From Escherichia phage vB_EcoP_IMEP24, in sequence record MZ648215.1: a DNA stretch of 39,577 nt. One strand, 5' to 3'. This document shows positions 1-39,577 of the stretch, piece after piece. The stretch's first letter is position 1, and each line of letters begins with the position of its first letter. The translations under genes and the position numbers were made by a program. A model generated the notes under the pieces. That model saw nothing but the letters and a program-made list of their open reading frames with translations. It made no database searches and was not told the origin of the DNA.

Positions 1-184
1 TCTCACACTTCAAGAACCTCAAGTCTCCCCCATAGGCCCTCTTTCAGTCCAGACCAAGGGTGGCCCACCTCCAGTCTATCATAGGGTTGGACCGGCTGTC
101 AATATCTCAAGTCAACGATTGGTCATGACTATCGGTGGTGGTGGTGACGATAGGTTGGGACTATTGGTCTGTCTCTGAGTCTTT
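1..184. repeat. Left direct terminal repeat (184 bp), identical to 39394..39577
   Basis: First 184 nt of the window recur exactly at the last 184 nt; T7-like genomes carry direct terminal repeats of this size class. Confidence 0.9.
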
Positions 185-199
185 ATCTGTATAACCATA

Positions 200-279
200 A
201 GTCCAACAACCTACAGTCCAACAACCTACAGTCCAACAACCTACAGTCCAACAACCTACAGTCCAACAACCTACAGTCA
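200..279. repeat. Tandem array, 5 perfect copies of 15-bp unit AGTCCAACAACCTAC, just inside left terminal repeat
   Basis: Read directly: agtccaacaacctac x5 then partial copy; CCTACAGT motif recurs at 302-322 and near right end. Confidence 0.9.
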
Positions 280-577
280 CAGACCATCGGTAAAGCCATT
301 ACCTACAGTCAGAGACCTACAGTTAATAGACACAAAGATATAGACTTAAGGTCAAAGACATGTTAGTCAAAGACTATATCATCTTAGTCACTATGGGGCC
401 GACGATAGCTTAATCAATATTATTTCAAATTAACTATTGACTACAGGTCTCGATTATGGCTTAATAGCTTCCGTCAACACGACACGGCAACAACCGGATA
501 GTGAAGACGCCGGGTCATCCCGGTCAAGTAGACAGCCTGATAAGTCATACGAAAAACAGGCAGATGACAGAAAGTAG

Positions 578-8561: not shown

Positions 8562-8713
8562 CCGATGAGAAGAAATACATCGTGGAGCTTGAGGGTCGCG
8601 TTCAGTCCTTCGAGGTTCCGGTGTACGCAAAGTCTCTTGAAGAGGCTACCCTGAAGTCCCAAGAGTATGAGGACGCTGGGTTTGTGGTCGGACGGATTCG
8701 TCCTGAGACCTAA
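8558..8713 (+). CDS. gp2-like inhibitor of host RNA polymerase (51 aa)
   Basis: Below ORF track cutoff; [15 protein letters not shown]...[10 protein letters not shown] matches T7 gp2 core; RBS ggaaggag. Confidence 0.8.
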
Positions 8714-8731
8714 ACTATCACTGTAGGACAG
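8709..8731 (+). promoter_or_regulatory. Phage RNAP promoter (phi2.5-like), variant
   Basis: cctaaactatcactgtagga; A to G at -3; +1 G at 8726. Confidence 0.6.
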
Positions 8732-11079: not shown

Positions 11080-12783
<1,704 letters not shown>

Positions 12784-17305: not shown

Positions 17306-17431
17306 TCTACTGGGCCGGACTTCTGGCCCTTTACTGCATGTACAAGTGGTTCGGGTCGAACAACCGTCCTAAACACTGAGTCTAACCGATAGTCATATCC
17401 TATCAATCCAACAGTCATCCATAGGTGAAAC

Positions 17432-17454
17432 ACTAAACTATCACTATAGGGACT
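17432..17454 (+). promoter_or_regulatory. Phage RNAP promoter (class III type, phi6.5-like)
   Basis: cactaaactatcactatagggac; +1 G at 17449. Confidence 0.85.
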
Positions 17455-17515
17455 TTAGGACCTAAGATATGACTATAAGATAGACTTTAGTCTTAACTTA
17501 AAGAGGAGATTCAAG

Positions 17516-38997: not shown

Positions 38998-39156
38998 ATG
39001 GCAAAGACCAAAGCTGTACTTAAAGCTCTGGCGACCAATCGAGCTACATACAGGTTTCTTGCTGCTGTTCTACTTGCTGCTGGCGTTACTGCTGGAAGTC
39101 AGTGGGTCGGGTGGGTCGAGACTCTCGTATGTTCTCTGGTGTCTCAGTGTAATTAA
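38998..39156 (+). CDS. Gene 19.5-like small protein (52 aa)
   Basis: Below ORF cutoff; RBS caggagg; TYRFLxxVLxAAG...LVCSLVSQC parallels T7 gp19.5. Confidence 0.65.
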   Translation: MAKTKAVLKALATNRATYRFLAAVLLAAGVTAGSQWVGWVETLVCSLVSQCN

Positions 39157-39189: not shown

Positions 39190-39230
39190 CTAAGGTCAGT
39201 TCATAGCTGACGCTACTCTACTGACCTTAG
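39190..39230. repeat. Perfect 10-bp inverted repeat (CTAAGGTCAG / CTGACCTTAG) with 21-nt loop near right end
   Basis: Read directly from sequence; lies between gene 19.5 and the right terminal repeat. Confidence 0.8.
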
Positions 39231-39393
39231 CTACTGTAGTCAAGGACTTTAGGTAACACCTTAATAGAAGCTCACTTAGGGTCATCCTACTTATTGGTCT
39301 ATCCTAGTGTCGCCTGACCTACGGTCCTTGACCTACAGTGGCTGAGTCCTACAGTAGGGACGATGAGTTTTGGACCAAAAGTTTGAGACCACA

Positions 39394-39577
39394 TCTCACA
39401 CTTCAAGAACCTCAAGTCTCCCCCATAGGCCCTCTTTCAGTCCAGACCAAGGGTGGCCCACCTCCAGTCTATCATAGGGTTGGACCGGCTGTCAATATCT
39501 CAAGTCAACGATTGGTCATGACTATCGGTGGTGGTGGTGACGATAGGTTGGGACTATTGGTCTGTCTCTGAGTCTTT
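39394..39577. repeat. Right direct terminal repeat (184 bp)
   Basis: Identical to 1..184. Confidence 0.9.

Follow-up and report, generated by a model that had tools for sequence, protein, structure and literature searches.

In phage T7, the direct terminal repeats (TRs) of the genome are flanked by arrays of short repeats, which were reportedly described by Dunn and Studier in 1983 and named SRL and SRR. The T7 packaging signal comprises PacB, which is recognised by gp18, and PacC, which is cut by gp19, and maturation starts when the complex of RNA polymerase and lysozyme pauses at the concatemer junction (CJ) and interacts with gp18/gp19. The class II pause/termination signals of T7 RNA polymerase, of which the concatemer junction is a natural example, are self-contained elements of 15-18 bp that carry the sequence HATCTGTT (ATCTGTT after A, C or T). 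T3 and T7 each package their own DNA only. In the maturation literature found, PacB/PacC and the CJ pause are named as signals; the short repeats are given no function there and no packaging experiment on them is reported. Short repeats have also been described in the T7-like fPS phages of Yersinia, in which the interval from the left TR to the first phage promoter contains 11-34 repeats and further repeats of 10-22 bp, also variable, are found beside the right TR; isolates that are 90-97% identical nevertheless differ in repeat number, and the genomes vary most near the TRs (PMC5923468). Maturation signals of T7-like phages have been employed for building transducing particles and contained phage vectors.

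Here, we analyzed the 39,577-bp sequence MZ648215.1 of Escherichia phage vB_EcoP_IMEP24 (the window, to which coordinates refer unless another record is named), which is a complete linear genome of a Kayfunavirus (K1F-like, T7-group). The short repeats beside its TRs are very probably the K1F-group counterpart of the TR-flanking arrays of T7, that is, a feature of an already known kind, and their presence here, at the end of a T7-like genome, was to be expected and is no surprise. As to what these repeats do, the overall explanation that we prefer, with a probability of about one half, is that they are redundant maturation/packaging sites within a conserved TR-junction module.

The terminal repeat junction of IMEP24

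The two ends of the genome are 100% identical over exactly 184 bp (1-184 and 39394-39577; Table 1), and its first bases are TCTCACA, as in T7. The closest database relatives are Kayfunavirus (K1F-like) phages with ~94% identity, none of them identical to the window. In Citrobacter phage SH3, which is 97% identical to the window across the right end, a TR of 183 bp has been mapped by run-off sequencing, so the 184-bp boundaries are credible physical ends. Looser copies of the motif family described below occur within the left TR, namely CCTCAAGTC at 17-25 and CCTCCAGTC at 68-76 (CCTNNAGTC matches at 17 and 68). The TR also contains a leftward sigma-70-like promoter (73-102, minus strand; second copy at 39466-39495) that consists of TTGACA, an 18-nt spacer with TG, and TAGACT and matches at 10 of 12 positions; leftward host promoters are annotated inside the TR of T3 (A0) and in the left array of T7.

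Table 1. Features of the TR junction in the window, from the left to the right genome end.
Feature	Position	Strand	Remarks
Left direct TR	1..184	+	Identical to 39394-39577
ATCTGTA preceded by T, class II pause-like motif (concatemer-junction "CJ" site)	185..191	+	Abuts TR end at 184
Degenerate unit preceding the tandem array, ACCATAAGTC	194..203	+	93% identity of 193-233 with the units that follow
Five perfect 15-bp tandem units	200..278	+	ACCTACAGTC 10-mers at 209-218, 224-233, 239-248, 254-263, 269-278
Distal pair, ACCTACAGTC AGAG ACCTACAGTT	301..324	+	Positions orthologous to those in most relatives (alignment)
Inverted repeat, CTAAGGTCAGT / ACTGACCTTAG	39190-39200 / 39220-39230	+	11-nt arms, 100% complementary, 19-nt loop
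Right-flank pair, ACCTACGGTC CTTG ACCTACAGTG	39317..39340	+	Kept across 20 aligned junctions bar three single-base variants
Third right-flank copy, TCCTACAGTA	39347..39356	+	Variable or lost among relatives
Nearly invariant 33-bp block, CGATGAGTTTTGGACCAAAAGTTTGAGACCACA	39361..39393	+	Ends at TR boundary; alignment of relatives
Right direct TR	39394..39577	+	Identical to 1-184

The left array (194-324) follows the end of the TR and lies upstream of sigma-70-like promoters at 578-607 and 726-754. Its tandem part is reported by Tandem Repeats Finder at 200-278 with a period of 15, 5.3 copies, 100% matches and the unit AGTCCAACAACCTAC, and a 22-bp unique stretch separates it from the distal pair. 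The five tandem units and the further core copies adjacent to the left TR, on its interior side (302-322), that had been pointed out in the initial annotation are thereby confirmed. The window has 15 copies of the 8-mer CCTACAGT, which we used as the search motif, where 1.87 are expected, and none of 100 shuffles reached 15; nine of the 15 exact copies are located in the TR flanks, seven at 210-323, including the distal ones at 302-309 and 316-323, and two at 39332-39355. There is no plus-strand ORF of at least 20 aa in 185-330, and an Rfam scan of the whole window returned zero matches. A coding role for the left array was considered and rejected, the only ORFs that cross it being on the minus strand and generated by the repeat; secondary structure was rejected as well (DNA fold z = -0.16). 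The left array is non-coding and unstructured.

On the right side, a gene 19.5-like ORF (38998-39156) is followed by the inverted repeat, three cores (39317-39356), the 33-bp block and the TR. The recurrence of the same core near the right TR, also claimed previously, was borne out by two exact copies of CCTACAGT and the variant CCTACGGT, the latter at 39318. The two arrays had been described as lying "inside" the left and "outside" the right TR; the adjacency holds, and the wording does not, both arrays being inside the genome beside each TR copy. In the replicative concatemer, the arrays flank a single TR on either side.

The inverted repeat at 39190-39230 was correctly placed in the initial annotation, its arms however being 11 and not 10 nt long. 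It is centred 184 bp upstream of the TR, just 3' of the gene 19.5-like ORF. It folds stably (as RNA, -23.5 kcal/mol, z = -3.3), and the arms are invariant among relatives, the loop existing in three different versions. An intrinsic terminator was considered for this element and rejected, as the terminator scan was silent there and a T-run is absent 3' of the hairpin. The 30 bp that follow the inverted repeat (39231-39260, CTACTGTAGTCAAGGACTTTAGGTAACACC) are almost invariant among relatives and include, on the other strand, a sequence (ACTACAGT) that matches the core at 7 of 8 positions. Further downstream, ~90-125 bp upstream of the TR, the window (39296-39307) and T7 (39651-39662) have the 11-mer GGTCTATCCTA in common, the sequence around it being otherwise unlike between the two.

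The block that ends at the cut site contains the palindrome TTTTGGACCAAAA at 39368-39380. This perfect palindrome (TTTTGG-A-CCAAAA), which precedes the TR boundary by 14-26 bp, is unchanged in 19 of 20 K1F-like junctions and is missing from T7, T3, K11 and gh-1, which have CCTTTAA(G/A)AAT...AAAA..CTGA.TG in common there. In these four phages, the tails ACC.AAAA..CTGA.TG...A before the TR boundary are related to the end of the block in the window. By position, the block 39361-39393 is a candidate for a signal of the PacB/PacC type.

At the other boundary of the TR, the motif ATCTGT adjoins the TR end in all six genomes compared (window, T7, T3, K11, gh-1 and SP6), beginning in SP6 on the last TR base. 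It reads ATCTGTT in T7, T3 and K11 and ATCTGTC/ATCTGTA in gh-1, and positions 180-188 of the K11 record are annotated as "concatemeric junction". Among K1F-like phages, ATCTGT is found ~180-190 bp after TCTCACA in 17 of 17 relatives, and the junction motif is ATCTGTAT in 28 of 28 further junctions scored and, by the overall count, in all 29 K1F-like ones. With T-ATCTGTA, the window matches six of the seven positions of the class II sequence ATCTGTT, the seventh base being A and not the strictly conserved T. The ATCTGTA motif (185-191) and the block 39361-39393, neither of which is mentioned in the initial annotation, are better-founded candidate maturation signals in this region than the short repeats.

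Conservation of the repeats in K1F-like phages and other T7-group genera

The relatives sampled comprised 17 GenBank junctions and 12 K1F-like IMG/VR contigs, and 29 junctions could be scored for the left flank. Each junction has 3-8 exact copies of CCTACAGT (mean 4.6) and never fewer than three, all 134 of 134 copies are on the plus strand, and the spacing in the tandem part is 14-16 bp. Beside the searched 8-mer, 85 of the 91 unique instances have A at -1 and 77 have C at +8; the spacer positions are variable (information content below 0.8 bits). Because conservation falls off beyond -1 and +8, the conserved unit is the 10-mer ACCTACAGTC with free spacers. The spacers of the expanded units differ by phage (tccaacaa, tctaacaa, tcctaca, tctcactaa, tctgactaa, ctaacta) with the core constant, and in phages of Enterobacter, Cronobacter, Klebsiella and Salmonella the core is retained in a left flank of which the rest is unalignable. 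On the right, the pair GACCTACGGTCCTTGACCTACAGT is retained even in four phages in which the 60 bp upstream are replaced.

A serious rival to any functional reading, if on balance a doubtful one, is that the repeats are neutral by-products, produced by slippage or unequal crossover beside a recombination-prone TR and homogenised between the flanks by gene conversion. The units within the array are 100% identical, which points to recent duplication. The near relative ZH4 has the same spacer as IMEP24 and two tandem units instead of five, so the copy number changes quickly; across phages it ranges from 3-8 in the K1F-like group to 11-34 in the Yersinia phages, the genomes of which are most variable near the TRs. 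Furthermore, single cores decay through point mutation in relatives, and core-specific selection is not seen within the E. coli subgroup, because the surroundings of the distal pair are as conserved there as the cores. Against neutrality stand the retention of the 10-mer where spacers and flanks have diverged beyond alignment, the uniform orientation of all copies, the minimum of three per phage, the essentially invariant right pair, and the presence in six genera of a flank-specific motif at the same two places. The exact number of repeat copies is clearly not critical. The free variation in repeat number that the initial annotation had named, if without effect on packaging, as evidence against its reading was found among viable isolates (3-8 copies, two against five units in ZH4, 11-34 in Yersinia), but only above a floor, since at least three left copies are always kept and the TR-distal right pair (39317-39340) is likewise kept bar single-base variants.

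IMG/VR was scanned for pairs of CCTACAGT, and only the K1F-like contigs of ~40 kb were informative. Single matches are mostly compatible with chance given the size of the collection; two multi-copy matches (L087 and L078) represent 15-bp periods in coding-looking sequence, and a third (L096) is an unrelated tandem repeat. The latter, IMGVR_UViG_3300005927_000007, is an unrelated 14-kb viral contig with six perfect tandem copies of CCTACAGTAGTAAC at 11878-11960.

In several database records, the TR and the arrays are crossed by genes annotated as "hypothetical protein" (PM131_013 at 601-759 of L008, SHAK7854_0007 at 610-714 of L006, and others in L015 and L016), which probably represent spurious ORFs, the maturation region being non-coding. 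The "circular" record OR594182 (SHAK7854, L006) contains two tandem TR copies at 445-810, with TCTCACA at 445 and 628; this doubling is probably an assembly artefact that arose from joining both direct TRs. The arrays are thus relevant to annotation, as records call spurious ORFs across them and short-read assemblies may collapse them.

Both genome ends of T7, T3, gh-1, K11 and SP6 were compared with those of the window, using right flanks of 200 nt. Each genome has its own core on both flanks: CCTAAAG in T7, CCTAAAG and CCTGTAG in T3, ACCTGAGG in K11, CCATAGG in gh-1 and CCTTAGT(G) in SP6. In each of the six, the commonest 6-mer of the left flank occurs at least twice in the right flank of the same genome, the chance expectation being ~0.05 per flank, and it is absent from the right flanks of the other genera, bar the sharing between T7 and T3 and one stray match. 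In T7, the CCTAAAG-type repeats are located at 175-338, just inside the left TR, and at 39621-39706, before the right one. CCTACAG and the CCTAAAG of T7 agree at six of seven positions, and all genera fit a loose ACCTnnAG, the motifs being too short to prove common descent. This concordance between left and right cores could also stem from gene conversion rather than from a shared binding protein.

The order of elements is common to the window, T7, T3 and K11: gene 19.5, inverted repeat, right array, conserved block, TR, ATCTGT pause motif, left array and early promoters. The earlier proposal that T7 has arrays in equivalent positions is hence strongly supported, with the cores shared between the flanks in each genus. 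The inverted repeat lies upstream of the TR by 190 bp in T7, 184 bp in T3, 145 bp in K11, 111 bp in gh-1 and 184 bp in the window. Downstream of gene 19.5, an imperfect inverted repeat with the sequence AGGGATTC...CATCCCT is common to T7, T3 and K11 (669-709 in L002 from T7, 375-415 in L022 from T3 and 435-479 in L146 from K11); the window has a different sequence at that position (CTAAGGTCAGT...), so that the structure is conserved and the sequence replaced.

Possible roles of the repeats

A functional role for the repeats is likely, because the core is kept across divergent lineages with strict orientation, a minimum copy number and left/right concordance in each genus. A strong functional claim is weakened by the free copy number above that minimum, by the lack of a link to packaging in the literature found and by the sharing of the core between T3 and T7. 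Since these two phages share CCTAAAG and yet package their own DNA only, the repeats cannot be the specificity determinant.

Under the preferred explanation, the maturation module would comprise, upstream, the gene 19.5-like ORF, the inverted repeat, the right array and the 33-bp block ending at the cut site, followed by the TR, the ATCTGTA pause motif, the left array and the host-type early promoters. In the concatemer, the single 184-bp TR is bracketed on both sides by 10-bp sites ACCTACAGTC of the same orientation, with 2-3 copies upstream and 3-8 downstream at a spacing of 14-16 bp. We tentatively suggest, at odds somewhat below even, that a DNA-binding maturation protein of the phage, for which gp18 (the small terminase subunit) is the most plausible candidate, binds these 10-mers as redundant sites; the sites would mark the junction and help the packaging complex to assemble or to stop. 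In T7, packaging begins at the right end; the right array would lie on the packaging-start side, like lambda cosB, and the left array would be reached shortly before the terminal cut is made, as with lambda cosQ. Since the sites are redundant, slippage could add or remove tandem units and the phage would stay viable.

A more specific version, which we regard as possible but improbable, holds that a maturation protein specific to the lineage, for example a ring of the small terminase gp18, recognises the 10-mers, with the right array starting packaging and the left one signalling termination. The DNA in one turn around an 8-9-mer ring would be as long as 5-6 units of 13-16 bp, and the genus-specific cores (CCTAAAG, CCTGTAG, ACCTGAGG, ACCTACAGTC, CCATAGG and CCTTAGT) would co-evolve with that protein. 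If true, the short repeats of T7 would gain a function after four decades without one.

The arrays might instead act on the phage RNA polymerase, by reinforcing or extending the ATCTGTA pause or as crippled promoter initiation regions, which would couple transcription to concatemer cutting. The left array begins 9 nt after the pause motif, and pausing of T7 RNA polymerase at the junction is tied to maturation. The window contains 12 phage (T7-type) promoters with the consensus CTAAACTATCACTATAGG, and the reverse complement of the core, ACTGTAGG, is one base away from the promoter positions -5 to +3 (ACTATAGG). The T7 core gives ACTTTAGG, likewise one base from ACTATAGG, and one real promoter of the window (8705-8729) has ACTGTAGG. 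This resemblance is a weak lead, with a chance probability estimated at ~0.01 and with T7 and K1F cases that are not independent; moreover, T7 and T3 share a core, yet their promoters differ at the relevant position. When scored with a weight matrix derived from the genome's own 12 promoters, which themselves reach 29-37 bits, the array units attain at most -3 bits on either strand, and array units as phage promoters were rejected on these negative scores. The pause site is a long way from the right-flank copies, these being upstream of the TR, and class II signals are self-contained within their 15-18 bp. As the array units are not promoters and the right copies are remote from the pause, a role in transcription is less likely, and we consider it unlikely.

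The same matrix revealed no phage-type promoter equivalent to phiOL in 1-1000, the best score being -0.2 bits at 375; T7, T3 and K11 all have a phiOL annotated within this first kilobase. The sequence at 375-400 (TTAGTCACTATGGGG) resembles a decayed promoter and varies among relatives. Elsewhere in the genome, a strong phage promoter (start 17428, 35.4 bits) has a weaker promoter-like copy 29 bp downstream (start 17457, 17.1 bits), which, within the region 17428-17483, is overlapped by an inverted repeat (17379-17402 / 17463-17486).

Finally, the repeats could serve replication, recombination or entry, aiding TR duplication or concatemer formation together with the inverted repeat, or acting at the leading end during entry into the cell; we judge this quite unlikely. 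The repeats are present at both genome ends, and five genera have kept an inverted repeat at a distance of 111-190 bp upstream of the TR. A hairpin processing intermediate was reportedly mapped by Chung, Nardone and Hinkle in 1990 at ~190 bp to the left of the T7 TR, which is where the T7 inverted repeat was found. In addition, the TR has to be duplicated during packaging (PMC5923468). The sequence, however, points to no specific replication mechanism, the array is without secondary structure, and a role in entry would leave the right-flank copies unexplained. The core does not fit the preferred sites of T7 primase (GGGTC, TGGTC and GTGTC), and the idea that it is a primase site was dropped for that reason.

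With a genus-specific core on both flanks, strict orientation and a minimum copy number, the short repeats offer a well-defined target for deletion and footprinting.

Comparison with known systems

The closest counterparts are SRL and SRR of T7 and T3, which likewise belong to genomes of the T7-like type and are located, on the left, directly after the ATCTGT that adjoins the TR and, on the right, in the interval from gene 19.5 to the TR. As in the window, their orientation is equal on both flanks, looser copies occur inside the TR, and the arrays are non-coding. The differences are in the period (12-13 bp in T7/T3 and 14-16 bp here), in the core (CCTAAAG in T7/T3, with CCTGTAG also in T3, and ACCTACAGTC here) and in the regularity, the perfect five-fold tandem repeat of IMEP24 contrasting with imperfect copies in T7. 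The class II pause site at the T7 CJ is an element separate from the short repeats; the window resembles it in the T-ATCTGT that abuts the TR end, as in T7, T3 and K11, and differs in the A at the seventh base, pausing by a K1F-type polymerase being only putative.

The fPS phages of Yersinia are also T7-like and have short repeats of variable copy number beside both TRs. They belong to another genus and have much higher copy numbers, and the likeness is one of position and of variability in copy number. Outside the T7 group, repeated and redundant packaging sites have precedents in the lambda cosB R-sites and the adenovirus A-repeats. The pac hexamers of phage P1 flank its cut site on both sides. 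Like the arrays described here, the R-sites and cosQ of lambda, the A-repeats and the P1 hexamers are several short, partly redundant sites near a cut or terminal repeat; these sites are bound by packaging proteins in unrelated systems and provide an analogy of mechanism only.
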